Positions 4,739 through 49,138 of a stretch of DNA of 64,000 bases are shown piece after piece (the first letter of the stretch is position 1; the number at the start of each line of letters is the position of its first letter). Where the stretch lies: positions 4,032,001 to 4,096,000 of the forward strand of contig OZ242374.1 of assembly GCA_965209055.1 (NCBI GenBank), written 5' to 3'. The notes under the pieces are model-generated. The model searched no databases, was not told the DNA's origin, and saw only the letters and a list, made by a program, of their open reading frames with translations. This stretch comes from Acidobacteriota bacterium (GTDB lineage Bacteria > Acidobacteriota > UBA6911 > RPQK01 > JAJDTT01). The position numbers and the translations under genes are program-made.

Positions 4739-4813
4739 GACCGGACTGTGACCCGGATAGTCAGAAGCTGAGGAAGACGTGAGGTAGATCTCGCGAATGT
4801 TTCTACCTTCATT

Positions 4814-5200
4814 TTACACGGCGATTTTCAGGCCCGTGTGCCGCGCCAGTACGCCGAAATCGGAATCATTATTGAGAACGGGCACACCGGCCCGAATTGC
4901 GATCGCCCCAATCAAGCAATCAATCAACCGGCGCACGGTCTCTCCTTTCAGGCGACAGATCCGGTACAGCGTGGCCGCATCATCGTAGTGAGTTGGTTCA
5001 GTCGGCAAGACGGTTGCCCGCGCCAACAGGCGACGGAGATCGTTCAGGTGTCTTTCGTTGCGGGCGCCGGCAAGTACTTCCATGCGGATGGCATCACAGA
5101 TGGCTATCTCTTCCTCGAGTAATGCGTCGACACGATTGCAGGTCGCCGAGCCCGTGTCGCGCAGGTACTCGATCCAGGCAGAGGTATCGACAAGTGTCAT
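4814..5200 (-). CDS. vapC: VapC PIN-domain toxin
   Basis: LVDTSAWIEYLR, EVLAGAR, IDCLIGAIA, DSDF. Confidence 0.92.
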   Translation of the reverse strand: MTLVDTSAWIEYLRDTGSATCNRVDALLEEEIAICDAIRMEVLAGARNERHLNDLRRLLARATVLPTEPTHYDDAATLYRICRLKGETVRRLIDCLIGAIAIRAGVPVLNNDSDFGVLARHTGLKIAV

Positions 5201-5400
5201 TGCGAGCGTCCGGCGCGCATCTCATCGAGGTCGCCTTCCCAACCAGATCCACGAAGACGCCGGGCCTCCTCCACGCTCAGGGGTTCCGCAGCAAGGGATC
5301 GGAGCGCAAAATTGATGGCCTCACGCTTTGTCCTCAAGTGGTAACGGCGCATGACTTCTGCACACGACACGTCGTCGATGTCTACGTTTGTGCGTGTCAT
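5197..5400 (-). CDS. vapB: VapB antitoxin
   Basis: MTRTNVDIDD...TKREAINFALR...GWEGDLDEMR; 4-nt overlap with vapC. Confidence 0.9.
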   Translation of the reverse strand: MTRTNVDIDDVSCAEVMRRYHLRTKREAINFALRSLAAEPLSVEEARRLRGSGWEGDLDEMRAGRSQ

Positions 5401-5674
5401 ACACCTATAATACACAATTAGTCCATGCCGTCGATGGACGTCCTTGATCAATCGGATCCAGACGCCTTGCTCGACGATTTTGGACCTGAACCTGCGTCAG
5501 GTCCCGGAGTGCGATGGACCCGCCTCAATGAATTCCTACCGGTAGTTCCGGTCAATATGTGGTGTGCGGCGAACTCCCACGATTGGCCCGTTAGATTCTT
5601 GGTCGATGTCCGCCGATTGCTGGAACTACACGCGGAATCACGTTAAAATACGTGACAAATAATGAGGTGCTTGA

Positions 5675-6025
5675 ATGTTATTCCAGAATTTCGTGGAAGA
5701 ACAGGTGTTTTCTCCGAATCTCATCGCGGCCGAACTCCGCACGACCAAGACCGAAATCGCGGGAACCTTGGGCCTCGGAAAGGACGCGTTTTCCCGTAGA
5801 TCGCGGATCCGCGCACGAAAAACGCAGGTTCGTTTGCGTCAGATGCTGGAGATTCTGAATCGGGTCGAGGTGGAGACCGGTTCGGCTCTCGCCGCTTATG
5901 CCTGGTTCAGGGCCGAACCGTTGCCGGGCTTCGGTGGCGCCACGCCGGATCTGTTGCTGCGGGAAGGCAAGGCCGACCATGTCCATGCCTATCTGGACCG
6001 GATCATGGCAGGTGGTTATGCCTGA
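5675..6025 (+). CDS. Xre/MbcA/ParS antitoxin
   Basis: HTH-like N-terminus; AYAWFRAEPLPGFGGATPDLL C-terminal motif; immediately upstream of RES gene. Confidence 0.85.
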   Translation: MLFQNFVEEQVFSPNLIAAELRTTKTEIAGTLGLGKDAFSRRSRIRARKTQVRLRQMLEILNRVEVETGSALAAYAWFRAEPLPGFGGATPDLLLREGKADHVHAYLDRIMAGGYA

Positions 6026-6037
6026 TTCGATCCCGTC

Positions 6038-6550
6038 GTGATGCGGTTCCGGGGAGTGGTTTACCGGGCGCACAACCCCGAATGGGCCTGGAAACCTCTC
6101 TCCGGCGAAGGCGCGCGCCGCCACGGCGGACGGTTTAACCGGCGCGGCGTTCCCGCGCTCTATACGTCTCTTTCCCCCCTGACGGCCATACGGGAGGCGC
6201 AACCGTTGGGCCGGCGCATGCAGCCTCTGACGCTTTGTGCCTACGACGTCGATTTGGAGCCGGTATTCGATTCACGGGATGGGGCCGTAAGGGCCGCACT
6301 TCAGGTAGACGATCACGAACTTGATTGCCGCTCGTGGGCGGCTCAAATGCTCGACGGCTCGGTGCCGGCCTCACAGGCTCTGGCTGATCGCCTGGTTTCA
6401 GATGGCTATGTTGGGATGCTGGTCAGGAGCTTTGCCGTGGCAGCCGGGCCCGGGGATATCAATCTTGTGGTTTGGAAATGGGGCTCCCAACGGCCGTGCC
6501 GTGTCGATCTGATCGACGATGAAAGTCGTCTTTCGACCAGCTCCCGATGA
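6038..6550 (+). CDS. RES-domain toxin (NAD+ phosphorylase family)
   Basis: VYRAH, SGEGARRHGGRFN, ALYTS, AIRE, LVRS, NLVVW. Confidence 0.9.
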   Translation: MMRFRGVVYRAHNPEWAWKPLSGEGARRHGGRFNRRGVPALYTSLSPLTAIREAQPLGRRMQPLTLCAYDVDLEPVFDSRDGAVRAALQVDDHELDCRSWAAQMLDGSVPASQALADRLVSDGYVGMLVRSFAVAAGPGDINLVVWKWGSQRPCRVDLIDDESRLSTSSR

Positions 6551-6571
6551 AGAGCTTGGAGTCGGGAAAGG

Positions 6572-6844
6572 TCATGGTCCATTGAGACGGGGGACCGTGG
6601 ACTTCGCGATCATCCGTTTGTGTTCTGGCCAATCGGGCTCTTGATACCCCTTTTCACGGCTTTCGCACTCGGCATTGAACCGTCGCAGGTCCGCAAGCGT
6701 GAATGGTGCTGAACCCGTTGCCGCTACGAGCTTCTGCTCTGCGGCTTCTCTTAGCCAAGCGCTTAGGGACTTCTTCTCCCGTTGCGCTTGACGTTGATAG
6801 CGAGCCTTGTCCAACTCCGTCACGACAAAATCGATTCGTGCCAT
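6572..6844 (-). CDS. orphan ribbon-helix-helix antitoxin-like protein
   Basis: ARYQRQAQREKKSLSAWLREAA, EPDWPEH; start chosen at ATG 6844. Confidence 0.65.
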   Translation of the reverse strand: MARIDFVVTELDKARYQRQAQREKKSLSAWLREAAEQKLVAATGSAPFTLADLRRFNAECESREKGYQEPDWPEHKRMIAKSTVPRLNGP

Positions 6845-6991
6845 GGTGTTCCCGGTAGCACCCAATATACGCCACAGACGCGTCATGGTTTCAGAACTGA
6901 TGGTGGCTTCTGAATCTGACATCCGGAAGTTATTCCTCAGTCGATGATCTGAACCGGCCCCGGTACACAAGGTAAAAGGGGGTCGGAAAGC

Positions 6992-7000
6992 TGTTATACT
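6992..7000 (+). promoter_or_regulatory. extended -10 promoter element (TGnTATACT)
   Basis: TGTTATACT about 30 nt upstream of ATG 7032. Confidence 0.45.
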
Positions 7001-7031
7001 CCCTCCTCAAGGGGTTCGGAACACGATCAGA

Positions 7032-10000
7032 ATGAGTTGGTTACAGGTAGGGAACCCGTCGCGTTGCGGCGAGGCCGGCAGTTATAGGCCTAGGCGACGA
7101 TCTAGCGGAGTCTTTAGTCTGCCGGCGTTGGTCTTGGCGGTCAGCATTTCAAACCTTCTGGCCATTCAGGAAGAGTCTGCGCCCGATTTCGAGACCCACA
7201 TTTTTCCCCTCTTCGAAGCTCACTGCCTGTCCTGCCATGGGGCGTCGCAACCGCAGGGCGAACTGGACCTGACGACCCATGAGACCACTCTGGAGGGCGG
7301 GAAAACCGGTCCCGCGCTGGTTCCCGGTTCACCGTTGGAGAGCTTGCTGCTGGAGAAGCTCCACTCCGGAGCGATGCCGATGGGAGCCGCCAGGCTGAGT
7401 GACGACCAGATTAACCTGGTCCGTCGCTGGATCGAAGACGGTGCCCGCCGCGCGGAAGCGGAGGCCGAGGCTGTTGCTGTAGCGGCTTCAAACGTGGTCG
7501 CCGGGCCCGAGACCGTGACCACCATCCTCAACGTCAAGTGTCTCCTCTGCCACGGCCGCCGCAACCAGGAGGGGGGCCTCGACCTGCAGACCCGGGCGAG
7601 TCTGCTCAAGGGAGGCGCCTCGGGATCCGCCATCGTCCCTGGAAAACCGGATGAGAGCCTGCTCATTCAACGGATAGAAAACTCCGACATGCCCCCGCTG
7701 AAGGATCAGGCCAGGCTCTCGGTGCGCGCCGTGACCTCGTCGGAGCTGGAACGCCTTCGGGCCTGGATCGCCGCCGGGGCGCCCTACGATGAACGGAAGC
7801 CGGAGCCGGTCGTTGCTACGGAGGACGCCCTCGTCAGCGACTCGGACCGCGATTTCTGGTCGTTTCGCCCGCCGGTTCGGCCTCCGGTCCCGGAAGTTCA
7901 ACATCAGGATCGCGTTCGCAACCCCATCGACGCCTTCCTTTTGGAAAAGCTGGAAGCAGAGGGGTACACCTTCTCGGCCGATGCTCCACCCCTGACCTTG
8001 CTGCGGCGGGCCTACTTCGACGTGACCGGGTTGCCGCCGACGTCCGAAGCCGTCCAAGCCTATGAGGGCACGCCGGAAGCGTACGGGAAGCTGGTGGACG
8101 ACCTCTTGGACTCTCCCGGATACGGCGAACATTGGGGCCGCCGTTGGCTGGATGCCGCCGGCTATTCCGACTCGGAGGGACAGGTGTCGGCCGACGCGAT
8201 CCGTCCCAATGCCTGGCGCTACCGCGATTATGTCATTCGCTCCCTCAACGCCGACAAGCCCTACGACCGCTTCCTGCAGGAGCAGATCGCCGGCGACGAG
8301 CTCTTCGACTACAAGGCGGCGAAAGAACTGACCCCCGAGCAGCGCGATCGGCTGGTGGCGACGGGTTTCATGCGCATGGGTCCGGACGGGACCTACAGCG
8401 TCTCCCAGGCCTTCGTCCCTGAACGTCTGGAGGTCGTGGCCAGCCAGGTAGAGATCCTCAGTTCCTCGGTGATGGGGATCACCATGGCCTGCGCGCGCTG
8501 TCACGATCACAAGTACGATCCCATTCCACAGCGCGACTACTATCGATTCAGCGCCATCCTGCGCTCCGCTTTCGATCCCTACGATTGGCTCTCTCCCAGC
8601 GAGACTCCCGTCGGCCCGGAGGCGGATTGGAACGACAGCAACATGCGCGTACTGCAGGGAGCGCCTGTGGAGGAGGTCCGGGAAGCCGACGAGACCAACG
8701 CTCCCGTTCTGCGTGAGATCGAGGAAATCGAGCAGGCCTTCGAGGAGAAGGCGAACGTCCTGCGCGAGAAGCTCTTGAAGGAAAAGAGAGCCGCAATCCC
8801 GGATTTGGTTCGGGAAGAGGTGATCGCGGCGGAGAAGACACCGGTTCCGGAACGGACTCCAGTACAGGAATACCTGGTCGAACGCTTTCGGGACCAGTTG
8901 CAAATCCTGCCCGAGGAATTGGAGAAGCGCTTCCCATCCTTCCAGAAGGTGGCCAAGGAGAAGAGGGATGCCGTCCAGGCGGTCAGGAAACGGCTCAAGG
9001 GGAATCCCAGGCTCCGGGCCCTGTTCGACATGGGTGGCCGGCCCACGGCGGTTCACGTCCTGGGCCGGGGACAATACCAGAATCCCCTGGAGCCGGTCGC
9101 TCCGGGCATCCCCTCCGTCCTGGGCGTGGGTCTCGAGCCCTACCGGCTGGAAAAGCCGAAGTGGACGACTGACACGACGGGCCGTCGATTGGCCCTGGCC
9201 AAATGGCTCACGCAATCCCGGCACCCCCTCACCGCCAGGGTTCTGGTCAATCGCATCTGGCAGTACTACTTCGGCTCCGGTCTGGTGAAGACGGTGGGGA
9301 ACTTCGGCCGCACCGGCGCCCCTCCATCGCACCCCGAGCTCCTCGACTGGCTGGCCACGGAATTCGTCCGGAGCGGTTGGAGCATGAAGGCGTTGCACCG
9401 GATGATCCTGACCTCGACCGCCTACCGTCAGAGTTCCCGCCGGAATCCCGGGATCGACGGTGACCCCGACAACCGTCTGCTCTCCTACTTTCCCATGCGC
9501 CGGCTGGATGCCGACGCCGTCCGCGACTCCATTCTGAAGGTGTCCGGGCGGCTGGACCCGACACCGTTCGGTCCTCCCGATTCCATTGAGGAGAAAGCGG
9601 ATGGAGAAGTGGTGGCCAAGGAGTCGAAGCGGGGATATCGGAGAAGCCTCTACCTGATGCAACGGCGCTCGACCCCGGTCACCATGCTGGACACCTTCGA
9701 CGCGCCCCAGTTGCGGCCCAACTGCCTGGTGCGGAACCGTTCCACCGTCTCGTCCCAAGCCCTGCAGTTGATGAACAGCGAGACGGTCCGGACCAGTTCC
9801 CGTTTCATGGCGGGAAGAGTGATCGACCATGTCGGCCGCGACCCGGAGGCGCAGGTGAAGAGAGTCTACCTGGCCGCGCTGGGACGTCCGCCGTCTCCGG
9901 AGGAACTGGATTGGAGCAAGTCGACATTGGCGGACATGACCGAGGAGTGGAAACGGGATCTGGACCAGGACCGTTCCCCCGAGCCTCGGCAGGGCAGGGC

Positions 10001-33966: not shown

Positions 33967-35898
33967 GTGGGCACCGTCTTCACACCTCTGGACACCGGCG
34001 TCTTCTTCGCCGCCCTGGCTCTGGTGATGGGCATCGGCCTGTTGGCGTCGCGGCGCGAAAACACGGCGGAGGCCTATTTTCTGGCGGGCCGCAACATCCC
34101 CTGGTGGGGCGTGGCCGGTTCCATCTACGGCAGCAACGTCAGCGCCAATCACATGATCGGGATGATGGGCATTGGCTTCAGCGTCGGTTTCGCCCAGAGC
34201 CACTTCGAGCTGGGAGCCATCGCCGGCCTCATGCTCCTCTGCTACGGGTTCCTCCCGGTCTATCGAAAGTTGAGGATCTACACCCTCTCCGAATACCTGG
34301 AGCGCCGGTACGACCAGCGCAGCCGGGCCGCCTACGCCATCATCCTGGTCATCACCATGGCTGTGGTCCAACTGGTGCCCGCGCTCTACATCGGCGCCCG
34401 TTCGAGTTGCGTGCTCATGGGCGGAGCCGCGCTCGAGGAGATCGGTCCGGAATCGATTCCTGGAGAGTTGCAGGACGGGGAGGCGGGGTCAGCCGGTTCG
34501 TCCGGCGCGCCGGCCAAGTCGAAGCTGGGCGTGAATCGTTTTCACTACAGCGTCTTCGTTCTGATCCTGGCCGCCATCGCCACCAGCTACACCATTTTCG
34601 GGGGACTCAAGGCGGTCATCTGGACGGACGTGATCCAATCGGTCCTGCTGCTGTTGGGCGGCATTTTACTGGCGATCCTCACCTTTGACCGGCTGGGAGG
34701 TTGGAGCGCGCTGATGGACCTGGATCGAGCGGGGGCGGGAAAGATGCACCTCTATCTGCCCAGCGACCATCCGGACCTGCCCTGGACCGGGGTTCTGACC
34801 GGCCTGATGGCTCTGCACATCTTCTATTGGGGAACGAACCAGTTCATCGTCCAGCGTGCGCTGAGCGCCCGGAGCGACTCGCAGGCGCGGCTGGGCATCG
34901 TAGCGGCGGGGTTCCTCAAGTTATTGATCCCCTTCTTTTCCATCGCCAGCGGAGTGGCTGCCTTCTATCTGTTCCAGTCCGAGCTCCCGAATCGTTCCGT
35001 GGCCCCCGACACCGCCTTCACCGAGTTGATCGTTCTGGTGATACAGCCGCTGGGATTCGGGCTCATCGGCGTGATCGCGGCCGGCGCCGTGGGAGCCATC
35101 CTGTCCTCCATCGATTCCATGATGAACTCGGCCGCCACCATCGTCAGCATGGACCTCTACCGCCGGTATCTCAATCCGCAGGCCAGCGACGCCCAGATGA
35201 TCCGGGTGGGACGATGGTCCATCCTGGGGTTTGTCTCCCTCGCCAGCCTGTTCGCGCTTTTCGTCATCGATCCCAACTCGGAGAAGAATTTCTTCCTTCA
35301 GATCGTCGACTACCAGGGCTACCTGACCCCCGGGCTCCTGGTGGTCTTCCTGCTGGGGTTGTTCTGGCGGCGGACGACGCCCACCGCGGCCTTCGTCACC
35401 ATCGTCCTGGGCGTTTTCTATTCCTGGGCCGTGGAGTGGATCTACGTCGCGTACCTGGCGCCATTGCCCGCGGTGGCGGCGGTGACCGGCGAGGTGCTCA
35501 ACTTCTTTCACCGGGTCGTCGCGGTCGTTGTGCTGTGCACGTTGACAGCGGTCCTGGTGAGCCGCTTGGGCAGTTGTCCCGAGGAAAAAGCGAAGCTGAC
35601 CTGGGCTGGAGTGCTCGCCATTTCCCCCGAAGCAGTCAGGAATCTGCTGGCAGGCCTGGTGGCTTGGCTGGGGATCATGGCGGCTCTGGCGGCGGCTGTG
35701 GCCGGCGGCGGACTGTCCCCGGTAGCGGCGGCCCTTCTCGGTTCGGTCCTGACCCTGGGGATGTTCTGGTTGCTGCTGAGGCGCCGGGCCCGGAGCCGAG
35801 GGCCCGTGAACCTGGTGTCCTGGGCCGTTCGCCAAGACCGATGTTGGGCCGGTTGCCTCTGCGCGGCCGCCGTCTTCTTCCTCTTCTATTTTTATTGA
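33967..35898 (+). CDS. sodium:solute symporter
   Basis: YFLAGR, SNVSA, EYLERRY, GGLKAVIWTD, YWGTNQFIVQRAL, SSIDSMMNS. Confidence 0.93.
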   Translation: MGTVFTPLDTGVFFAALALVMGIGLLASRRENTAEAYFLAGRNIPWWGVAGSIYGSNVSANHMIGMMGIGFSVGFAQSHFELGAIAGLMLLCYGFLPVYRKLRIYTLSEYLERRYDQRSRAAYAIILVITMAVVQLVPALYIGARSSCVLMGGAALEEIGPESIPGELQDGEAGSAGSSGAPAKSKLGVNRFHYSVFVLILAAIATSYTIFGGLKAVIWTDVIQSVLLLLGGILLAILTFDRLGGWSALMDLDRAGAGKMHLYLPSDHPDLPWTGVLTGLMALHIFYWGTNQFIVQRALSARSDSQARLGIVAAGFLKLLIPFFSIASGVAAFYLFQSELPNRSVAPDTAFTELIVLVIQPLGFGLIGVIAAGAVGAILSSIDSMMNSAATIVSMDLYRRYLNPQASDAQMIRVGRWSILGFVSLASLFALFVIDPNSEKNFFLQIVDYQGYLTPGLLVVFLLGLFWRRTTPTAAFVTIVLGVFYSWAVEWIYVAYLAPLPAVAAVTGEVLNFFHRVVAVVVLCTLTAVLVSRLGSCPEEKAKLTWAGVLAISPEAVRNLLAGLVAWLGIMAALAAAVAGGGLSPVAAALLGSVLTLGMFWLLLRRRARSRGPVNLVSWAVRQDRCWAGCLCAAAVFFLFYFY

Positions 35899-35906
35899 CC
35901 AGGAGC

Positions 35907-36016
35907 GGGGCGGCGGTTTCCCAACCGCCGATTCTCCCAGGGGCGGCGGTTTCCCAACCGCCGATTCTTAGACCGTCAAGGACCGCTGCGCACGGGCGGT
36001 TGGAAATCGCCGCTCC
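35907..36016. repeat. REP-like cluster, probable bidirectional terminator
   Basis: 29-bp GGGGCGGCGGTTTCCCAACCGCCGATTCT at 35907-35935 and 35940-35968, plus inverted GGGCGGTTGGAAATCGCCGCTCC at 35994-36016; lies between convergent genes. Confidence 0.8.
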
Positions 36017-36033
36017 GCACGCTTTCCCCGGCT

Positions 36034-36861
36034 TCACCCCTTGGTCTGTTTCCGGACGGCCCTCCGGACGCCGGCCCGGAGCAGGGACGGAAACAGGAGT
36101 TTGACCAGAGGGAGGAATCCCATGGCCTTGGGGATGTAGAGGTTCCCTCCCGGTCCCGGAAGCGCTCCTACGATTCGGCGCGAACACTCGCGGACGCTCA
36201 CGCCACGCTCCCGCCGGGACCGATGCGAGGCGGAGCCCAGGGGTGACCCGTCGGCCGAGAGGGCGTGAGCCCGGAGCCGGGTGCTCCGGATCCATCCCGG
36301 CATCACGTTCAGAATGCGGACCTGGCCGTGCAACTCGGTCCGCAACGTTTCCAGGAGACCGTCCAGGGCGTGCTTGCTGGCGGTGTAGCCGCTGTGAAAC
36401 GGCACGCCCACCCGGCCCTGGACGGAGGAGATGGCCACGATCATGCCGTGTTGCTCCTTCAAGGCCGGTAGCGCGGGATGGATGCAGTGGACGGCCCCCA
36501 GGTAGTTCACTTCCATGAGCGTTCTGTAAATCTCGACGTTGCGAACCTGGTCGAAGAGGGTCCACATGCTCACGCCGGCGCTGAGGATGAGATAGTCCAG
36601 GGCTCCGAATTCGCCGGTCACCTTCGAGACCATTTCGCGGCACTGCCGGGCGTCGGTGACGTCGGTGGGGACAACGAGGCAGCCGGCTCCGGCTCGCCGG
36701 ACTCCGGCGGCCGTTTCCTGGAGCGAATGCTCCGAGCGGGAACCCAATCCCAGGTTCATTCCCTGGGCGGCCAGATCAAGAGCCAGTCTCTTCCCCAGGC
36801 CGGAGGAGGCGCCGGTGATGAGTCCCGTCTTGCCGTGGAATTTGGATTTTCCTTTTGGCAT
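36034..36861 (-). CDS. SDR oxidoreductase, DHRS7B-like
   Basis: ITGASSGLG, VNYLG, AISSVQG, YTASK (YxxxK), PGW. Confidence 0.9.
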   Translation of the reverse strand: MPKGKSKFHGKTGLITGASSGLGKRLALDLAAQGMNLGLGSRSEHSLQETAAGVRRAGAGCLVVPTDVTDARQCREMVSKVTGEFGALDYLILSAGVSMWTLFDQVRNVEIYRTLMEVNYLGAVHCIHPALPALKEQHGMIVAISSVQGRVGVPFHSGYTASKHALDGLLETLRTELHGQVRILNVMPGWIRSTRLRAHALSADGSPLGSASHRSRRERGVSVRECSRRIVGALPGPGGNLYIPKAMGFLPLVKLLFPSLLRAGVRRAVRKQTKG

Positions 36862-36908
36862 GGATCAAGTCGTGAGGTATCTCGTCCCGGCTGCGCGCGG
36901 GTGGGCAC

Positions 36909-38651
36909 TCAGTCGCCCAGGACGTTGTTTCGAATGCCGAAGATATTGTTGGGATCGGTGGACCGCTTGATCTCCTTCAGGAGCCGAATACCTCGGGAAG
37001 AGAGAGTGTGTTTCATGAACCCACTGCGGAGTTTACCGACTCCGTGGTGGTGGGAAATGGACCCGCCCGCATCGATGATGGCCTGGCGCAGTGAATGCTC
37101 GATCTCGCTGAAAACGGTTTCCGGGTCGTCCACGCCCTTGGCGTAGAAGCCGAACATGAAGTAGATACAGACTCCCGTGTGGTAGACCTGGGTGATTCGA
37201 TAGGAGACATAGGGGCGTCCCGGCAGTTCCAGCTCTTGGTGCCGGGCCTGAGCCCGGGCCACGACGGCGTCGCAAACCTGGTGTATTCGGTTCCAGGGCA
37301 CCGAGGTCTCGAAGGTCTCTCCCAGGATGTGGAAGTCCGACAGGAAGTCCCGGATATAGGCGATGGCGAAGGTGAGCCGATAGCCGCGGCGGCCGTTCTC
37401 GGCGCCGCCCGGCAGGCCTCCGTACTCATTGGCCAGTTTGTAGAGGCCCTTTTCCTGAAAGGCGACCTCTTCCTGGGATCCTTCCATGAGGATGGTGGCG
37501 GCGGACATCTGATGGGGATCGAACCCCTTGACCTTGAGCACAAAGAATTTCTTCAGCTTGTCCAACCAGGCGGCCGATCCGGTGGGCCTCGGCTTCAGGG
37601 CCTGGCCGAAACGGAATTGCACGTTGTCCACCAGACGGATGCTGGCGGGTACGAATCTGGTTTCAGCCAAGCTCCGAAGGAAGGCGACACCCTTGGCAAA
37701 GTCAGGAAAAACGAGGGAGCCATACTTGCGGACCTGGGGCCGGGGATGGATCTTGATGATGGCGCTGGTGATGAGACCCAGGTTGCCTTCGCTTCCAAAG
37801 AAAAGACTCTGGGGTTGCATCCCCATGGAGACGCGGGGAGAGGCCGTCAGATGCTCCACCCGGCCGGTGGGCGTGATCAGTGTCACTTTTTCGACAATGT
37901 CCTCGATGTTGCCGTATCGATTCTTCTTCATCCCGCTGGCATTGGTGGCGATCCATCCTCCCAGGGTGGAGAGTTCGATGCTGTCGGGTTCGTGACCGGA
38001 GACGAAACCGGCCTTCCCGAGCTGGCGTTCCAGTTCCTCCCCCGTGATGCCCGCTTGGACCAGCGCCCGCTGGTTCTCGCGATCGATCCATTCGACGCGA
38101 TTCATCCGCCTCATGTCGACGGAAACGATCATGCGTTCTTCCGAGGCCGGAAGTTTCAATGCGCAACTGACGCTGGTGCCGCCGCCGTAGGGAACGAGGC
38201 AGACATCTTGTGTCCGGGCCAGCGCCACCAGCATCGCACAATCTTTCTCCGCTTCGGGGTAGATGACCATGTCGGCGACACGGTCCAGTTGGGAATAGAC
38301 GACCCGGAAGACTTCGTCGGCACTGGTCTGCCCGTGGCTGTGGATGAGTCTCTCGCGGTCGTCGAAGGTGTATTGATCGGGGCGGTAGAAATTGGCCAGA
38401 CGACGGCAGAACCGGGTGTTCTTTCTGGGGGCGGGCACCGGTTTGGGATCGACCTCGGGTCGTTTTTTCTTGAAATCGGGATCGAGTCCCAGGACTTCTC
38501 TCACGTACGGGAGGAAGTCGCGCATCTTGTAGCCGCACAGCTCGTAACGGTCACCGGTGAGTGTCACCGAGTCGTCGTCGTTGAGCACGAATCGGGTGTC
38601 GGCGAATCCCCAACGGTGCCCCCAGATCGGATCGTTTTCTCGACTGGTCAT
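36909..38651 (-). CDS. alkyldihydroxyacetonephosphate synthase (AGPS, FAD-linked)
   Basis: PYGGGTSV, GHEPDSIELSTLGGW..TNASGMKKNRYGNIED, GSEGNLG, SIRLVDN, FETS, CIYF, GGSISHHHGVGK. Confidence 0.88.
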   Translation of the reverse strand: MTSRENDPIWGHRWGFADTRFVLNDDDSVTLTGDRYELCGYKMRDFLPYVREVLGLDPDFKKKRPEVDPKPVPAPRKNTRFCRRLANFYRPDQYTFDDRERLIHSHGQTSADEVFRVVYSQLDRVADMVIYPEAEKDCAMLVALARTQDVCLVPYGGGTSVSCALKLPASEERMIVSVDMRRMNRVEWIDRENQRALVQAGITGEELERQLGKAGFVSGHEPDSIELSTLGGWIATNASGMKKNRYGNIEDIVEKVTLITPTGRVEHLTASPRVSMGMQPQSLFFGSEGNLGLITSAIIKIHPRPQVRKYGSLVFPDFAKGVAFLRSLAETRFVPASIRLVDNVQFRFGQALKPRPTGSAAWLDKLKKFFVLKVKGFDPHQMSAATILMEGSQEEVAFQEKGLYKLANEYGGLPGGAENGRRGYRLTFAIAYIRDFLSDFHILGETFETSVPWNRIHQVCDAVVARAQARHQELELPGRPYVSYRITQVYHTGVCIYFMFGFYAKGVDDPETVFSEIEHSLRQAIIDAGGSISHHHGVGKLRSGFMKHTLSSRGIRLLKEIKRSTDPNNIFGIRNNVLGD

Positions 38652-38882
38652 CGCTATTTCCCATTTTACTGCTTGTGCCCGGTCACTTGCTGAAGTATGG
38701 CCGTGGATCGGGACACCGATTCCCGTGTTCTCGCGTGCGAGTGGTCACACCGAAAGTGATTTTTCACACCGAACGTGTGATGCGCAACTCCGGGCGCTTC
38801 GAATCAAGAGAGGCCGTCCGGTCTACCATGGTCATCACACTGCCGCCGTCCGCCAGCGCCCGGATCGGCTGGCGCCATGCGT

Positions 38883-39749
38883 TCAACGGACGAATCGAAA
38901 CCGGATTTCCCGGCGGGAGCGCGCGTGCCACCAGGTCTGGAAGTCCTCCGCGGGTCGAATTTCCGGGTTCAGGATACGGGCTCGAAGGGTGACCGGCAGC
39001 GGGTCCTGATCGAAGGGGTACGGGTCGACGGCGACTCGGCGTTCGCCGGTCGGAAGAACACGGAGTGAGACTCGATCGTTCCAACACCTGCGCGGAATCT
39101 CCCGGAGAGTTCGCTCCTTGTCTCCACCGAAACAGAGGTGGAGCGACAGCGCGTCGCAAAGTTGCAGCAGGCGGATGTGAGGGTTCAGGTGGCGCGGCTT
39201 GACGGCGGCGGCCCATTCGGGATCGCGCTTGATGCGTTCCGTGAGCAATCCCTGCAGAGCCTTTTGTTCGGCAACGAACTCCTTGGCTTCTTCCAGTTCT
39301 CTGCCTTTGGGTGGAGGCCACTCAGCGGGGATTCCGAACAGGGGATGGAGGAATGCCGGCGTGTGCCCGGCCTGGACGCGTGGCGCGTGCAGCCAGTAGG
39401 CATGCAAGCTGATGAGCAGGGCGATATAGGGATGGTGGTGCCGGAAGCGGGATACGCCCAAGTGCCACCGCCGGAGGCCGTCGGACTGTTTGAGGCTCGT
39501 CAGATCCAACGGGAGGCCGTCGGAGGGGTCGATTTGGGGGTCGGCCTCCCACTCCCACCAGCCGTTGTCGTGCTCGGCGATGGCGAGGACGGTTTCGGCT
39601 CCCAGCGCTTCGGGGTCGGGGAAGGGTGCGTATCGACCGGGGCGGGCGAATTCGTGGTTGCCCCAGTGGGCGGCCAGGTAGCCGGCGGCCGCAGCGTGCT
39701 CCGGCTGCGAGATGCACCAGAGTTCGCCGCCCACCGTGCGCTTGAGCAT
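38883..39749 (-). CDS. DUF3891 family protein
   Basis: ISQPEHA, HWGN, AIAEHDNGW, ALLISLH, LQLCDALSL, DPYPF. Confidence 0.8.
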   Translation of the reverse strand: MLKRTVGGELWCISQPEHAAAAGYLAAHWGNHEFARPGRYAPFPDPEALGAETVLAIAEHDNGWWEWEADPQIDPSDGLPLDLTSLKQSDGLRRWHLGVSRFRHHHPYIALLISLHAYWLHAPRVQAGHTPAFLHPLFGIPAEWPPPKGRELEEAKEFVAEQKALQGLLTERIKRDPEWAAAVKPRHLNPHIRLLQLCDALSLHLCFGGDKERTLREIPRRCWNDRVSLRVLPTGERRVAVDPYPFDQDPLPVTLRARILNPEIRPAEDFQTWWHARSRREIRFRFVR

Positions 39750-39784
39750 GGTTCCTCGGAACGGGTGATCCTGAGGCCGGAAGA

Positions 39785-39988
39785 TCAGCCTTTCGAAAGG
39801 CGGCCGGCCCTCCAGAGCAGGAAGCCTGCCGCTGAGAGCAGGAACAGCGTCAGCAGCAGCTTCACCGGCCAGAGATCGAAAGTGTAGTAAAAGGAGGCCA
39901 ACAACAAGAGGCCCACAAGCAACAGGAGCCAACCGCTGTATCGATATTCGCCGCGCCGTTTCCGCTCCTGGCTATCTCCGGTTTCCAT
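39785..39988 (-). CDS. small two-TM membrane protein
   Basis: two strongly hydrophobic segments in 67 aa. Confidence 0.55.
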   Translation of the reverse strand: METGDSQERKRRGEYRYSGWLLLLVGLLLLASFYYTFDLWPVKLLLTLFLLSAAGFLLWRAGRLSKG

Positions 39989-40079: not shown

Positions 40080-40970
40080 TCAGGATCCCGGAACCGGTTG
40101 CAGGCGTTCCCGCGCCACGCCGGTCAGGAGAAGTCGATGCCGGAGCGAGGTCAGCGTCCGCTTCATGGATGTTCGGGCGATGGATCTCACGAGGGGAGCC
40201 ACGATCGGCTTGAAGATGCCGGGGTAGCCGCGGCTCAGGGACAGCGATTCGCATTCCACCACCACGCCGCCGTCGATCTGCTGATATCTCCAGTAGGAAT
40301 TGAGGCCCCACAGGAATCCCCGGTCGTGTCCGGGGACCTTTTCACGCTCTTGGGGAGTGTGGAGTTTCTCCAGCTCGGCGATACGGGTGGCAATGCTCCG
40401 GCATGAGGCCCGGAACGGATCGTGCCAGCGGTAGTGGACCAGGTGTTCCGTGTTGTAGGCGACGGTGACGATTTTCTTGCGAACCAACTTCAGGTAGATG
40501 CGCAGGGAGTTATCGTCCCGTTCCAATATTTTCGTTTCCAACACGTCTTTTTGCGGAGGCACATTGGGGTCCGGATAGCGCAGGCGATGGATGACCTGTT
40601 CCAGACGGACGGAAGGAATCAGAATGGTTCCCCGCCAGTGGTGGATCATTCCACCGGGGACTTTGACGGTTTGGCCCCGGGCATCCTCCGTTTCCATCCG
40701 GGCGACCGTGACCTGGCCCGAACGGACCCGTTGCCAAGTCACCCGCGCTTCGTTCATCCGACCGAATTCGTGTCCGAGGAACCTCTTCTGCGATGCCAGC
40801 TCGTTGCCGATTCTTTCCTCGGTGAGCCGAACGTATTTGTCCCAGGCCAGCAGGGTCTCAGGTTTCAACTCGGCTCCGTGAACCCTTGAGCCCGGGAACA
40901 GGGGGTACCCCGCGGCCAGGACGATGGTTGCCAGCGCCAACCACACCTTGATCGATGAAATTGGTCTCAT
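40080..40970 (-). CDS. exported hypothetical protein (paralog of 44358-45317)
   Basis: signal peptide; ELKPET, IHHW, NTEH, TRIAE, GHDRGFLWGLNSYW, ECESLSLSR. Confidence 0.75.
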   Translation of the reverse strand: MRPISSIKVWLALATIVLAAGYPLFPGSRVHGAELKPETLLAWDKYVRLTEERIGNELASQKRFLGHEFGRMNEARVTWQRVRSGQVTVARMETEDARGQTVKVPGGMIHHWRGTILIPSVRLEQVIHRLRYPDPNVPPQKDVLETKILERDDNSLRIYLKLVRKKIVTVAYNTEHLVHYRWHDPFRASCRSIATRIAELEKLHTPQEREKVPGHDRGFLWGLNSYWRYQQIDGGVVVECESLSLSRGYPGIFKPIVAPLVRSIARTSMKRTLTSLRHRLLLTGVARERLQPVPGS

Positions 40971-40971
40971 T

Positions 40972-41397
40972 TCATTTCTCCTTGGCGGCCTGTCCGAAGA
41001 CCAGCCAATGGCTGGAAAAGTAGTTCAACGTGGAGCAGGAAGCGATGGCCATCAGGTTGGCCGGCAGGTAGTGAAAATTCAGGCCGGCCACCAGGAACTC
41101 CATCAGAAACAGGTTTTGGACGATGGAGACCGTGCCGACGGTCATGTTGAAGCGAAGCAACCGGCCCAAGACACTCGTTTCCGCCGTTGCGGTGCGGTCC
41201 GACCACGTCCAACGCTCATGCCACCAGAAGTTGTGCAACACCGCCATCTCCACGGCCAGGGCGGTGGCCGGCAGGTAGTGCAGGTTCCAGACACTGCGCA
41301 CAAACATGAGAACGGTGATCTGAACCAATACTCCCATCAGGCCGACGGCGTTGAATCGGGCCCATCGGATCAAGTGTTCCATCTCGGGATTCCTCAT
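40972..41397 (-). CDS. GtrA family membrane protein
   Basis: RFNAVG, LHNFWWHERWTW, RF, four TM segments, NY...WLVF. Confidence 0.88.
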   Translation of the reverse strand: MRNPEMEHLIRWARFNAVGLMGVLVQITVLMFVRSVWNLHYLPATALAVEMAVLHNFWWHERWTWSDRTATAETSVLGRLLRFNMTVGTVSIVQNLFLMEFLVAGLNFHYLPANLMAIASCSTLNYFSSHWLVFGQAAKEK

Positions 41398-42170
41398 TTC
41401 CGGTTGCGGTGAGACCCGGTGAAGGCCGATCCCATGGGACCAAATCCGGTGGAGGGGAAACGTGGCAGGCTGATGGGAAGGGGCCGCTGGAAACGTGGCC
41501 TGGGTTCGGCGCGGTGCAGCCTTCGCGTGTGCCGGAGGGCGGAGACGGCGAATGTCAGGGCCAGACCCAGGATGCCGGCCATACCGCCGACGTCGAAGAG
41601 GTTGAAGGACCCCAGCTCTCCAAGTCCGACCACCGGCTTGTAGAAGAGAAAGACCGTGCCTGCGGCCAGCAGGAGTCGCAGTTCCGTCGGTCCGACCTTC
41701 AGGAAGGAGAGCCGAAAAACGCCGAGGACGTGGGTCGCGAGATAGATCTCGGCGGAGACCAGCAGATACGCGATCAGCAGAGCGAGCCCGACGATGGGGC
41801 TCATGAATTCGGATGCCGCCAGGCCCCCCAGCAAAAACAACGTTCCGGCCAGATCCAGGACATGATCGACGTAGTAGCCGTAACGCGGCCTCTGCTGGTT
41901 CCGCACCCGGGCCAGCGTGCCGTCCAGACTGTCACCGAACCAGTTCAGAACGAGGCCTGCCACGACCAGGAACAAGGCCCGCCGGTCCCAGGAAGCCGCG
42001 CAGTAGGAGAGGCCCACTCCCAGCATGGCCAGGACTCCCAGAAGGCTCAGATGATCGGCGTTGACCCAGGCCGGGAGCCGCCGGGCGATCCACACCAGGA
42101 GTCTCCTTTCGGCGGAGGCCAGGATGCTGTCGTGATGCCGTACGTGTTTGAAACCCTTTTGTCTCCTCAT
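41394..42170 (-). CDS. CDP-alcohol phosphatidyltransferase family protein
   Basis: DSLDGTLAR...GYYVDHVLD signature, GPTELR; RBS GAGGAG. Confidence 0.9.
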   Translation of the reverse strand: MRRQKGFKHVRHHDSILASAERRLLVWIARRLPAWVNADHLSLLGVLAMLGVGLSYCAASWDRRALFLVVAGLVLNWFGDSLDGTLARVRNQQRPRYGYYVDHVLDLAGTLFLLGGLAASEFMSPIVGLALLIAYLLVSAEIYLATHVLGVFRLSFLKVGPTELRLLLAAGTVFLFYKPVVGLGELGSFNLFDVGGMAGILGLALTFAVSALRHTRRLHRAEPRPRFQRPLPISLPRFPSTGFGPMGSAFTGSHRNRK

Positions 42171-42274
42171 GAAGCTCCTCCGTGATTCACTTCCGCAGCC
42201 GAAAACCCGCCGGGTGCGTCCCGGCAGATATCGGCCGCACCGAGAGGGAATGTGAGAACGGCGAGAAAAAGGGC

Positions 42275-45317: not shown

Positions 45318-45517
45318 AGAATCCCGCTCCCGAAGACGATGCTGACGTTCTCCTGCCCGCAGCCGGTGCGCCAAGCCTGGGCTTCCAGCGGAGATAGTAC
45401 GATATTCTTCCGAAGCGGGGAGGCAGGATCGACGCCTTACTGCCAGCCGCCGCGTCTCCGCATCCACCATTGGAACGCTTCGGTCGAGTGTGTGATGATT
45501 CCCATTGCGGGTTGCCC

Positions 45518-48500
45518 ATGCCTCTCAGCCGGTTTTTGCCCAGCCTTCCCCTGATTCTCGCTTTGGGGCCCGCGATTGGCGGGTCCCGACCCGAACGAGT
45601 CGATTTCAACCGCGACGTGGAGCCCATTCTCAAGAAGAACTGCCACGCGTGCCACGGGGAGCGCGTCCAGTCGGGTGGGCTGCGGCTGGATTCCCGGAAG
45701 GCGGCCTGGCAGGGCGGAGCATCGGGCCGGGCGCCCATCGTACCGGGGCGTAGCCGGGACAGTTTTCTGATCCAAGTGTTGACCGCAAGCGATTCCTCCA
45801 CGACGCGGCGGATGCCGGCCTTTGCGGATCCGCTTCCCGGAAGCGAGATCGATCTCATCCGGCGTTGGATCGACCAGGGCGCCGAATGGCTCGAGGGGAA
45901 GGAATCCCGGGATCAGAACCACTGGGCCTTCGTCCGGCCGCAGCGTCCGGCGTTGCCCTCAGGCGAACCTCGGGAATGGATCCGGAATCCCATCGACAGT
46001 TTCATTCTGGAACGGCTTGAAGCCGAGCATCTGACCCCGTCTCCGGAAGCGTCGCGGGCGACCCTGGCGCGGCGCGTTCACCTGGACCTGATCGGGTTGC
46101 CTCCCACCCTTGCGGAGCTGGACCGGTTCCTGGGAGACGGCGATCCAGGCGCCTACGAACGGATGGTGGACCGGTTGATGGCGTCGCCCCGTTTCGGCGA
46201 GCGTTGGGCCCGCGACTGGTTGGACGTGGCTCGGTATGCGGATACGAACGGATACGAGAAGGACCGGGTCCGCTCCATTTGGCCGTACCGGGACTGGGTG
46301 ATCCGCGCGCTGAACAGAGACCTGCCCTTCGACCGCTTCGTGGTGGATCAGCTGGCGGGGGACATGCTTCCCGGCCGGGGCCCGGAAGGGCGGATCGCCA
46401 CCGGATTCCACCGCAACACCATGCTCAACGAGGAGGGCGGAATCGACGTGGAGGAATTCCGGTTCGCCTCCGTGGTGGACCGGGTCAACACGACGGCGGC
46501 GGCATTTCTGGGCCTGACGCTGGCCTGCGCCCAGTGCCACGACCACAAGTACGATCCCATCACCCAGACGGAGTACTACGGGTTTCTCGCCTTTCTCAAC
46601 AACGCGGACGAACCGGAAATGAGGGTCCCGGACCGGAGGGTCGGCGAGAAACGGAAAGAGATCCAGGGCCGAATCCGCTCCCTGGAGTCTCAGCTCTCCG
46701 GGAAGTTTCCTCCGTATGGCTTCCGGAGCGTCTGGGACACGACGCCGCCTCGCGTGGTCACGTCGTCGGGAGGTGCGCACCTCACCCGGCGCCCGGACGG
46801 CTCCATCGAAGCTTCGGGTCCCAATCCGGAGCAGGAGGTCTATCGCTGGGTCGTCCGCCCGGCGACTGCGGTGGACCTGATCCGGCTCGAGGTCTTTCAT
46901 GACCCGGACGGCTCACCGCAAGGTCCCGGACGCGGGGTAAAAGGGGAGGCCGTTGTCTCCGAAATCGAGCTGCATGTGAAGGACCGAGGAGGCGGCTCGC
47001 CGCGCCGGTTGGTCCTGGGAGAACCGACGGCGACCTTGTCGCGTGAGGGGTTCGAGGTTTCCAAGGCTCTCGACGGTGATCCCGAGACGGGCTGGGGGCT
47101 GTCCAGGACTTACGGCCACCACAGGGCCGTCTTCCGCCTGGAAGAACCTCTGCGCTTGGCCTCCGGCGAGGATCTGGTCGTCACCGTGAAACAACTGGCC
47201 GGGGCCGGAAAAAACCTGGGCCGTTTCCGGATCTTTCCGGGGCAGGAGCATCGTACCCACGATCGCCCCGATCTTCCGGAACAGGAACAGCGCGGCCGTC
47301 ATATGGTGGCGAAATACGAGGCCTGGAAAAAGGAGGCTCGCCGCCTGGTTCGATCCTGGTCGATGCGCCGTCCTCTGAAACTGGTCTCGGAGAAATCGGC
47401 GACGCTCACCGTGCTCGACGATACGTCGGTTCTGGTGAGCGGAAACCATCCCAACTCGGACACGTATACGTTCGAGGTCGAACCGGGTCTGCCCACCGTC
47501 ACGGGCCTGCGGATCGAATTCCTGGGTCATGAGAGCCTGCCCGGAGGAGGACCGGGCCGCGGGACCGTCCTGGAAGAGGGCAACTTCATGCTCAGCGAGG
47601 TTACGGTCCAAGGCATTTCCGCCTCGGCGCCGGAGGGATCGACCCCATACGCTTTCCGGCGAGCCACCGCAGACTCGTTTTATCGCCATTTGCATCCGGG
47701 CATGACCCTGGACGGAGACACGCAGACCGGCTGGTCTCCCGACCGGGAACGGGGGATGCCGCAGAGCATCGTCTACGAGTTCAAGGAACCGGTCACCGTG
47801 GCCGGTGGCGAGCGGCTCAAGGTGACACTCGTCCAGAACCACATTCACACCCATACCATCGGACGTTTTCGGGTATTCCTGTCGGCCGGAAAATCCCCCC
47901 TGTCGAGTTCGGGTCTGCCGTTGCGCATCGAGTCGATCCTGTCGGCTTCGCCTGATTCCGCGACGCCCGATGACCGGGAGGCTCTCCTCCGGCACTTCCT
48001 TTCGGTGGCTCCGGAACTGCGGGAGGAGCAGCAAGAGATCCAGGCGCTCCGGAAGGCGATGCCGCGCCACCCCACGACTCTGGTCATGGCGGAGCGCGCC
48101 GGTCCGCGGACCACCCGGGTCCGTCATCGCGGGGAATTTCTCGAGCCTCGAGAGCAGGTGAGTCCGGGAGTGCCGGCGGTACTCCATCCCTGGCCGGCGG
48201 ACACGAATCGTGATCGGATCGCCTTCGCCCGCTGGTTGGTCAGCCGGGAGAATCCGCTGATGGCCCGCGTCGTCATGAATCGTCTCTGGTCCAGCTACTT
48301 CGGACGGGGACTCGTGACCACCATCAACGATTTTGGCCTTCGGGGCAGCCGCCCCTCCCATCCGGCATTGCTGGATTGGCTGGCGGACGAATTCATGTCT
48401 CAGGGTTGGAGCATGAAGGCGATGCACCGGCAGATCGTCCTGTCTTCCACCTACCGGCAATCGTCGAGATCGACGCCGGAACTGCTGGGGAAGGATCCGG

Positions 48501-49138
48501 AGAATGCCCTGTACGCACGGGGGCCCCGATTTCGGGTCAAAGCGGAAACGATTCGAGACATCGCCTTGGCTGTGGGTGGACTGTTGAGCCATAAAGTCGG
48601 AGGTCCCAGCGTGTTCCCTCTCCAGCCCGCCGGCGTGGCGGACCTGGTCTTCGGCGAGACGAAGTGGGAGGTGAGCGAGGGCGAGGACCGGTACCGGCGG
48701 GGACTGTATACGTTCTGGAAGCGGACCGTTCCCTATCCGGCCTTCACCACGTTCGACGCACCCCAGGGAGAGACTACCTGTCTCCGCAGGGAACGCTCCA
48801 ACACGCCGCTGCAGGCTCTGACGCTGCTCAACGACCCGGTGTTCGTGGAGGCGGCGCGGGGATTCGCTCTCAGGATTCTGCAAGACGCGCCGGAACCGGG
48901 ACGAATCGACTATGCTTTCCGGCGATGCCTCTCCCGGCCACCGGATCGCTTCGAGTCGGCCCAGATCCGGTCCTACTACGAGGCTCAGATGGAACGGATT
49001 CGGGCCGGTGGACTGACTCCGGCTCAAGGGTCGGAGATGGGACCCGTTCCGGTGGGCGTGAACCGGGAGGAACTGCTGGCGTGGACTGCGGTGGCACGGG
49101 TGCTGTTGAACCTCGACCGGACCATTTCCAAGGAGTAG
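45518..49138 (+). CDS. DUF1549/DUF1553 cytochrome c protein with internal F5/8-like inserts
   Basis: DFNRDVEPIL, CHACH, CAQCHDHKYDPI, HWAF, PSHPALLDWLA, NTPLQAL; two ALDGD/TLDGD..TGW inserts. Confidence 0.92.
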   Translation: MPLSRFLPSLPLILALGPAIGGSRPERVDFNRDVEPILKKNCHACHGERVQSGGLRLDSRKAAWQGGASGRAPIVPGRSRDSFLIQVLTASDSSTTRRMPAFADPLPGSEIDLIRRWIDQGAEWLEGKESRDQNHWAFVRPQRPALPSGEPREWIRNPIDSFILERLEAEHLTPSPEASRATLARRVHLDLIGLPPTLAELDRFLGDGDPGAYERMVDRLMASPRFGERWARDWLDVARYADTNGYEKDRVRSIWPYRDWVIRALNRDLPFDRFVVDQLAGDMLPGRGPEGRIATGFHRNTMLNEEGGIDVEEFRFASVVDRVNTTAAAFLGLTLACAQCHDHKYDPITQTEYYGFLAFLNNADEPEMRVPDRRVGEKRKEIQGRIRSLESQLSGKFPPYGFRSVWDTTPPRVVTSSGGAHLTRRPDGSIEASGPNPEQEVYRWVVRPATAVDLIRLEVFHDPDGSPQGPGRGVKGEAVVSEIELHVKDRGGGSPRRLVLGEPTATLSREGFEVSKALDGDPETGWGLSRTYGHHRAVFRLEEPLRLASGEDLVVTVKQLAGAGKNLGRFRIFPGQEHRTHDRPDLPEQEQRGRHMVAKYEAWKKEARRLVRSWSMRRPLKLVSEKSATLTVLDDTSVLVSGNHPNSDTYTFEVEPGLPTVTGLRIEFLGHESLPGGGPGRGTVLEEGNFMLSEVTVQGISASAPEGSTPYAFRRATADSFYRHLHPGMTLDGDTQTGWSPDRERGMPQSIVYEFKEPVTVAGGERLKVTLVQNHIHTHTIGRFRVFLSAGKSPLSSSGLPLRIESILSASPDSATPDDREALLRHFLSVAPELREEQQEIQALRKAMPRHPTTLVMAERAGPRTTRVRHRGEFLEPREQVSPGVPAVLHPWPADTNRDRIAFARWLVSRENPLMARVVMNRLWSSYFGRGLVTTINDFGLRGSRPSHPALLDWLADEFMSQGWSMKAMHRQIVLSSTYRQSSRSTPELLGKDPENALYARGPRFRVKAETIRDIALAVGGLLSHKVGGPSVFPLQPAGVADLVFGETKWEVSEGEDRYRRGLYTFWKRTVPYPAFTTFDAPQGETTCLRRERSNTPLQALTLLNDPVFVEAARGFALRILQDAPEPGRIDYAFRRCLSRPPDRFESAQIRSYYEAQMERIRAGGLTPAQGSEMGPVPVGVNREELLAWTAVARVLLNLDRTISKE

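Follow-up and report, generated by a model that had tools for sequence, protein, structure and literature searches.

An AGPS orthologue and its conserved short-chain dehydrogenase neighbour in an acidobacterial genome: candidate genes for two steps of ether-lipid synthesis

Two adjacent genes in a 64,000-nucleotide stretch of an Acidobacteriota genome (hereafter the window; C1:4032001-4096000 of a single-contig 6.08-Mb genome) raise the question of whether a bacterium encodes, side by side, steps 2 and 3 of the dihydroxyacetone phosphate (DHAP) route to 1-O-alkyl glycerolipids. The first gene encodes a 580-residue protein dependent on flavin adenine dinucleotide (FAD; P0001, 36909..38651) and the second a 275-residue classical short-chain dehydrogenase/reductase (SDR; P0002, 36034..36861); as the first-pass annotation had stated, the two are co-directional, both on the minus strand, and 47 nt apart (36862..36908). 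We show that P0001 belongs to the family of alkyldihydroxyacetonephosphate synthase (AGPS) and that its pairing with the SDR gene is conserved. The best reading of these two observations, as had been proposed before, is that of consecutive steps, and we consider it moderately probable that the two make up one small transcription unit serving this part of the route, with P0002 as a candidate 1-alkyl/acyl-DHAP reductase.

AGPS identity of the FAD protein

P0001 has the two-domain FAD fold of the VAO/PCMH type, with Pfam matches to FAD_binding_4 at residues 127-268 (E 2.8e-36) and to FAD-oxidase_C at 304-571 (E 1.3e-38). In phmmer comparisons with the PDB, it aligns with guinea-pig AGPS (4bby) at 555.8 bits (E 1.2e-165; residues 10-575 on 93-656) and with Dictyostelium AGPS (2uuu) at 299.2 bits; the best non-AGPS chain, a D-lactate dehydrogenase, reaches 80.6 bits, with glycolate oxidase at 74.6, which bears out the earlier view that the protein stands nearer to AGPS than to generic FAD oxidases. 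The alignment takes in the AGPS-specific N-terminal region, starting at residue 10, and D223, T229, R339, Y497 and H534-536 fall on guinea-pig D303, T309, R419, Y578 and H615-617, which we take to be active-site residues of that enzyme (catalytic Tyr578, the His615-617 loop, Arg419 and Asp303/Thr309). Entries for the Y578F and R419H mutants of AGPS are present among the PDB matches, and all eight motif blocks that the first-pass annotation had quoted for AGPS recur in P0001 as exact pattern matches. By family membership, P0001 is a true AGPS orthologue, and its predicted activity is the conversion of acyl-DHAP and a fatty alcohol to alkyl-DHAP.

The bit score of P0001 against the animal enzyme is about that of representatives at 44-45% identity (P0129, 545 bits; P0130, 541 bits), and its likeness to animal AGPS is therefore at about the level reported, in the available text, between the Myxococcus xanthus and human enzymes (~42% identity; 10.1101/2025.10.10.681575). 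Fold, length and active-site residues are shared with the AGPS of the mammalian peroxisomal pathway, which consists of GNPAT, AGPS, DHRS7B (PexRAP) and FAR1, although P0001 is without the peroxisomal targeting extension, its alignment starting at residue 10 against residue 93 of the mammalian protein.

Despite these similarities, the label "animal-type" previously given to the locus is overstated, since P0001 falls in a multi-phylum bacterial clade apart from labelled eukaryotes. Acidobacteriota, Chloroflexota, cyanobacteria and Neomarinimicrobiota all have homologues in the range of 60-97% identity, and JGI names the close ones alkyldihydroxyacetonephosphate synthase. Among 150 representatives, none could be labelled as animal and none has an N-terminus resembling a type 2 peroxisomal targeting signal. 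Our tree is a quick maximum-likelihood reconstruction (IQ-TREE, LG+G4, with support from the Shimodaira-Hasegawa-like approximate likelihood ratio test only) of 101 AGPS-domain rows, 62 of 163 candidates having been dropped for not spanning query residues 110-560; its eukaryotes are protists only, with no animal sequence, the chosen outgroup was not monophyletic, and the order of clades is not fixed. P0001 belongs to a 16-row bacterial clade (support 96) with Chloroflexota, cyanobacteria, Neomarinimicrobiota and a gammaproteobacterial acyltransferase-AGPS fusion, and Poribacteria adjoin this clade. A separate 11-row clade (support 100) contains three labelled protist sequences and two proteins that end in a peroxisomal targeting signal of type 1, and fusions of a fatty acyl-CoA reductase (FAR), an acyltransferase and AGPS make up a third clade of 31 rows.

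AGPS also occurs in fused proteins, and the types we encountered are acyltransferase-AGPS (P0125, the 810-residue gammaproteobacterial protein), FAR-acyltransferase-AGPS and, in the 1109-residue P0258, an AGPS-like domain joined to a GlpD/GlpO-type glycerol-3-phosphate oxidoreductase.

The SDR and its pairing with AGPS

The genomic company of AGPS provides the main evidence on the role of P0002. We collected 80 AGPS loci from a collection of species-representative genomes and counted as paired those in which a P0002 match of at least 150 bits starts at most 400 nt downstream on the same strand. The SDR lies directly downstream of AGPS in 38 of the 80, spread by record label over Acidobacteriota (28/32, with two loci too short and two without it), Neomarinimicrobiota (6/6), Trueperaceae (1/1) and unlabelled or oddly labelled records (3/6); it is missing from Chloroflexota (0/26) and Eremiobacterota (0/2), cyanobacteria yield two weaker matches among seven loci, and in three loci of the whole set the downstream sequence was too short and nothing was seen. 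In an even sample of the phylum (401 genomes, of which 28 belong to the order of the window), AGPS at E<=1e-80 occurs in 22 genomes, 17 within the order and five outside it. All 17 AGPS-positive genomes of the order carry the SDR directly downstream (at least 218 bits), and none of its 11 AGPS-negative genomes, one of which (G049) is flagged unpublished, has a P0002 match at E<=1e-40. Because the sampled genomes are kin, the counts establish joint gain and loss of the pair and do not demonstrate independent events. The spacing is similar throughout, at ~35-130 nt in the homologous pairs of 16 related genomes. That the SDR would prove to be no conserved neighbour had been named beforehand as grounds for abandoning the proposal, and the conservation of the pair across several phyla removes these grounds. 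One AGPS-adjacent orthologue (G136:C1:1694959-1695759) is read through a single in-frame TGA and could be a pseudogene or the product of a sequencing error.

P0002 itself is a classical SDR (Pfam adh_short, E 1.5e-43) with the glycine-rich dinucleotide motif and the N-S-Y-K catalytic tetrad, and an alignment of 17 AGPS-adjacent homologues shows no variation in T16-G-x3-G-x-G (T16-G17..G21..G23) or at R42, N119, S145, Y159 and K163. The arginine after strand 2, R42, suggests NADP(H) as the cofactor. The protein passes the NCBIfam model PRK06181, scoring 252.1 bits where 215 are required and matching profile positions 3-267 of 268 with its residues 7-273; NCBIfam assigns no function to this family. 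Of the two SDR motif strings quoted in the first-pass annotation, the residues are present but neither string matches as written, there being one extra residue between the blocks. In a confident AlphaFold2 model built on the 17-homologue alignment (mean predicted local distance difference test 88.1), strand 1 begins at residue 12 and the chain closes with a pair of helices (245-256, 258-273); there is no N-terminal extension or membrane anchor.

Comparisons with solved structures return mixed SDR neighbours by sequence, profile and fold, with no single subfamily ahead. As a single sequence, P0002 matches FabG at 91.5 bits and 11beta-HSD1 at 89.1 bits; its family profile gives clavaldehyde dehydrogenase 164.9 bits, 11beta-HSD1 ~132 and FabG-type proteins ~130; and a Foldseek search with the model places clavaldehyde dehydrogenase first, followed mostly by 11beta-HSD1 and HSD17B13 (template modelling scores 0.74-0.80, 22-30% identity), so that the structural neighbours are mostly membrane-bound lipid or steroid SDRs. 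In the mammalian pathway, too, an SDR-type enzyme has been proposed for the reduction that follows AGPS, and the available text of one study places the DHRS7 subfamily near HSD11B1 (PMC13200781). The 11beta-HSD1-type relatives of P0002 are compatible with a likeness to DHRS7B; the 120 best homologues of P0002 bear generic names, none of them DHRS7B, and a search of the Atlas by features returned bacterial SDR clusters alone. A further difference concerns the membrane, as DHRS7B/PexRAP is described in the accessible part of the literature with an N-terminal transmembrane anchor or membrane peroxisomal targeting signal (PMC13256971), in place of which P0002 has its two C-terminal helices at 245-273.

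From the conserved pairing, we predict that P0002 is most likely an alkyl/acyl-DHAP reductase that acts on the alkyl-DHAP made by its neighbour. A limited search of the open-access literature, which is not proof of absence, found no bacterial enzyme named for this reaction, and the genome of the window has no close P0002 paralogue, the next-best SDR scoring 102 bits. An unlikely alternative is that AGPS is genuine and the SDR carries out some other lipid reduction, from fatty aldehyde to alcohol, thereby providing the co-substrate of AGPS, or on a keto-lipid or a head group, alkyl-DHAP being reduced by another enzyme. In its favour, the specificity of SDRs is unpredictable, the family profile matching many unrelated PDB SDRs at similar scores, the 26 Chloroflexota AGPS loci do without this SDR, and the M. 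xanthus operon, as described in the text available, uses a different protein of the extended-SDR type (10.1101/2025.10.10.681575). Every AGPS pathway nevertheless needs the keto group of alkyl-DHAP to be reduced, and in the order of the window this SDR is the sole reductase-type gene that travels with AGPS (17/17).

Gene cassettes in other phyla bear further on this alternative. A 248-residue PlsC-type acyltransferase lies directly upstream of AGPS in 16 loci, and in 10 of these a gene resembling HMG-CoA reductase (HMGR) comes first, followed by acyltransferase, AGPS and SDR. The HMGR-like protein scores 279 bits against an HMGR equivalog cut-off of 441.8, a shortfall in keeping with the fatty-alcohol-forming reductases of the FcrA class; AGPS and PlsC-like genes are reported in or near fcrA-bearing genomes in the part of that study available (PMC11948995). 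All 10 cassettes thus keep the SDR in addition to a dedicated alcohol-forming reductase, which argues against a role of the SDR in making the alcohol. The four-gene cassette looks like a complete DHAP-route ether-lipid operon; its AGPS is of the same clade and its SDR, which shares 39-57% identity with P0002, of the same orthologous group, and the two genes follow in the same order, whereas the locus in the window holds the last two genes only, and its genome yields no HMGR-like homologue at E<=1e-8. The cassettes (L047, L050, L062, L063, L067, L070, L072, L081, L085 and L086, around 4000-9400) come from Neomarinimicrobiota, Trueperaceae and unlabelled metagenome-assembled genomes (MAGs), and four loci have a second SDR copy. 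In eight Chloroflexota loci (L056, L057, L060, L061, L071, L078, L080 and L084, about 7800-8680), a 257-residue protein with no Pfam or NCBIfam match takes the place of the SDR directly downstream of AGPS, and most of these have a FadB-like enoyl-CoA hydratase/3-hydroxyacyl-CoA dehydrogenase upstream.

ElbD and the proposed pathway

Consistent with the first-pass annotation, the window contains neither a FAR nor a GNPAT/PlsB gene, as none of the eight NAD_binding_4 and five Acyltransferase matches found genome-wide with Pfam lies inside it. The genome does encode a 1481-residue ElbD-type protein (C1:1434995-1439437; L102:6996-11441), 2.6 Mb from the AGPS-SDR pair, which unites NAD_binding_4 (40-381), Sterile (485-558), AMP-binding (588-993), PP-binding (1163-1229) and Acyltransferase (1280-1413) domains. 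FAR, acyl-AMP ligase, acyl carrier protein (ACP) and acyltransferase in one polypeptide are the domain set of ElbD from the elb cluster (elbA-E), as given in the available texts of three studies (10.1101/2025.10.10.681575, PMC9131029, PMC11948995), and here they would stand in place of mammalian GNPAT and FAR. When the stand-alone AGPS-adjacent acyltransferase of other phyla is searched against this genome, its best match is the ElbD acyltransferase domain (99.8 bits). Each of the 28 genomes of the order encodes a full-length relative (52-94% identity), whether or not it has AGPS. In four of the 17 AGPS-positive ones, the ElbD-type gene lies 1.1-2.3 kb from the pair (G112; G353, 1.4 kb; G336, 2.3 kb; G159, 2.3 kb), and in G112 it is co-directional with AGPS, SDR and a 244-residue open reading frame (ORF) that stands between ElbD and AGPS and has no NCBIfam or Pfam match. 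The earlier statement that the module is separate from the Elb route is contradicted by these data.

Given these genes, the pathway would run as follows. The ElbD-type protein would supply the fatty alcohol through its FAR domain and acyl-DHAP through its acyltransferase domain; FAD-bound AGPS, by the chemistry of its family, would swap the acyl chain of 1-acyl-DHAP for the fatty alcohol to give 1-O-alkyl-DHAP; and the SDR, probably NADPH-dependent and membrane-associated via its C-terminal helices, would reduce the C2 keto group to yield 1-O-alkyl-sn-glycerol-3-phosphate. PlsC and CDP-alcohol enzymes could then produce alkyl-acyl (plasmanyl) phospholipids. The substrate and cofactor of the SDR, the connection to ElbD and the lipid product are the parts of this scheme that we infer. 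We would expect alkyl ethers and not plasmalogens, because neither a CarF/PEDS1 signature for a vinyl-ether desaturase (Lipid_desat, PF10520) nor a PlsA/Ger-type signature (DUF2229 and HGD-D) had a match in the genome; the DUF2229 control was positive in Thermotoga.

The closest described arrangement is that of M. xanthus, in which, according to the portions of the studies available, a bacterial AGPS orthologue lies in an operon with a Rossmann-type reductase, ElbD is encoded elsewhere in the genome, and knockout showed a contribution of the AGPS gene to ether lipids (10.1101/2025.10.10.681575, PMC9131029). The acidobacterial unit differs in being without a FARAT gene, in having a classical PRK06181-type SDR instead of an extended one, and in a genome in which no CarF/PEDS1 was found. 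The M. xanthus work regards elb and agps as two routes independent of each other, with no AGPS candidate in the elb operon, whereas ElbD adjoins AGPS-SDR in four acidobacterial relatives. In this respect, it is tempting to hypothesize that ElbD, AGPS and SDR act in order in one pathway, with AGPS giving the ether-bond step that the elb operon visibly does without and the PRK06181-type SDR as the missing bacterial acyl/alkyl-DHAP reductase, a counterpart of DHRS7B/Ayr1. We regard this extension as speculative and rather doubtful; if it were true, AGPS would not be the separate minor route that it is in M. xanthus. The chief weakness of the scheme is that ElbD works without AGPS in 11 relatives and in M. 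xanthus, so AGPS-SDR may instead be an added branch and not a missing Elb step.

Several findings weigh against the assignment of the two genes to consecutive DHAP-route steps. The substrates of SDRs cannot be read from sequence, and the reductase role of P0002 draws on genomic context. Of the AGPS loci with room downstream, 37 of the 80 have no SDR (Chloroflexota 25, Eremiobacterota 2 of 2, cyanobacteria 5 of 7, Acidobacteriota 2, unlabelled 3); outside the order, five acidobacterial genomes have AGPS but no SDR at E<=1e-40; another 11 genomes have full-length SDR relatives of lower score (146-188 bits) in the absence of AGPS; and none of 23 long AGPS-containing proteins scanned includes an SDR domain. 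ElbD is present in 11 genomes of the order that are without AGPS, and in the genome of the window it is 2.6 Mb away. A promoter scan of the locus gave no promoter-like site, and the negative for PF10520 is weak, as its control was positive in none of 14 control genomes. In the portion of PMC9131029 available, moreover, loss of the AGPS gene in M. xanthus lowers ether lipids only slightly. Even so, family membership of P0001 and the conserved pairing leave consecutive synthetic steps as the reading we favour.

We also considered the reverse direction, in which a sponge symbiont processes alkylglycerol lipids of its host, the SDR oxidizing alkyl-glycerol-3-phosphate to alkyl-DHAP and AGPS removing the alkyl chain. 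Near-identical DNA does occur in sponge metagenome runs, whose contigs carry the locus almost unchanged (an X5 contig, 35943-38800, with 32 differences and an X8 contig with 86); sponges are rich in ether lipids according to the accessible text of a recent preprint (10.64898/2026.06.23.733905); and the convergent neighbour of the SDR gene encodes a solute symporter. However, judging from record titles, free-living lineages, marine and soil, also have the same pair, the window shows no gene for ether-lipid uptake or for a kinase next to it, the link with ElbD speaks for synthesis, and the partners of AGPS at other loci are biosynthetic, with CdsA and a CDP-alcohol transferase in addition to the acyltransferase and alcohol-forming reductases, all of which makes salvage a highly improbable explanation. 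Lastly, the notion that P0001 is a generic D-lactate/glycolate-type FAD oxidase with an incidental SDR neighbour, which could appeal to its best NCBIfam match (GlcD, at 147.9 bits far under the cut-off of 567.9, in a database with no AGPS model) and to the NCBI name of its homologues, only "FAD-binding oxidoreductase", is refuted by the PDB phmmer scores and meets further opposition from the AGPS N-terminal region, HHH loop, catalytic Tyr and conserved SDR, leaving it almost no credence.

AGPS homologues in Acidobacteriota and in sponge symbionts are already published. The available texts report agps homologues in Acidobacteria subdivision 4 and many phyla (PMC13159169, PMC11868695, 10.64898/2026.06.23.733905), the joint presence of elbD and agps within individual MAGs of Acidobacteriota, Poribacteria and Latescibacterota from sponges (10.64898/2026.06.23.733905) and, in Table S5 of PMC13012113, GTDB proteins of the AGPS family, Acidobacteriota being mentioned 45 times; the part of PMC13012113 available describes AGPS as without phylogenetic signal and leaves the reductase step undiscussed. 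New here are the conserved SDR partner and the linkage to ElbD. With homologues in this phylum and habitat already catalogued, our findings overturn nothing and constitute a solid but modest addition, in that the locus offers a candidate gene for the reductase step of the DHAP route and the physical linkage of ElbD and AGPS suggests that two published "independent" routes may cooperate. Ether lipids of Acidobacteria are relevant to membrane adaptation, to the lipid chemistry of the sponge holobiont and to the question of where branched tetraether proxies originate.

The surroundings of ElbD include further lipid-related genes. In three of the four ElbD-linked genomes, a YegS/DgkB-type lipid kinase (DAGK_cat + YegS_C; L111:12496-13386, L112:2284-3291, L113:12602-13612), possibly an alkylglycerol or diacylglycerol kinase, directly precedes ElbD; the genome of the window has no homologue at E<=1e-8. 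Immediately upstream of its own ElbD-type gene are coenzyme F420 biosynthesis genes (L102:1270-7071; G000:C1 about 1429270-1435070), namely a CofG/H-type radical SAM protein, a CofE ligase, CofC and an F420-dependent oxidoreductase-like gene. Elsewhere in this genome (L103:3581-9904; G000:C1 about 4817580-4823900), an 834-residue protein joins a second FAR-like domain to a sulfotransferase beside a 1257-residue polyketide synthase-like protein with enoyl reductase, ketoreductase and ACP domains, and the two could belong to a sulfated or reduced lipid pathway.

Transcription and neighbouring genes

Within the window, the 47-nt spacer contains no terminator-like site in a terminator scan, which returned three sites against a shuffled mean of 4.3, fewer than in shuffled sequence. 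Between the convergent 3' ends of the SDR gene and a sodium:solute symporter gene lies a GC-rich palindromic repeat of ~33 nt in two to three copies (35906..36019). A blastn search with 35880-36040 gave 163 matches in its own genome, which identifies the repeat as a dispersed element resembling repetitive extragenic palindromes (REP-like); many unrelated metagenome contigs match this stretch and nothing else of the region, and it likely marks the 3' end of the AGPS-SDR transcription unit. Contigs of a sponge metatranscriptome run (X20) that are 88-95% alike to the locus cover 21 of 30 bins; one spans 37 nt of the spacer and the 3' end of AGPS, none bridges from the spacer into the SDR gene, and DNA carry-over is possible.

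Upstream of AGPS, on the same strand, are a DUF3891 protein (38883-39932), kept there in seven of the 80 loci, all from close relatives, and a tight trio (40080-42270) composed of a CDP-alcohol phosphatidyltransferase, a GtrA-family membrane protein (40972-41397) and a 296-residue protein (40080-40970) with no NCBIfam or Pfam match, whose stop and start codons overlap or abut. The phosphatidyltransferase has a weak archaetidylinositol-phosphate-synthase-like match, and the trio may act in lipid head-group chemistry. We rejected all four genes as parts of the AGPS-SDR module because their place next to AGPS is confined to relatives at genus level (6-7 of 80 loci). Further along, on the plus strand (45470-49138), the window encodes a 1222-residue protein with PSCyt1, PSCyt2 (DUF1549) and PSD1 (DUF1553) domains, an architecture typical of Planctomycetes that here occurs in an acidobacterium.

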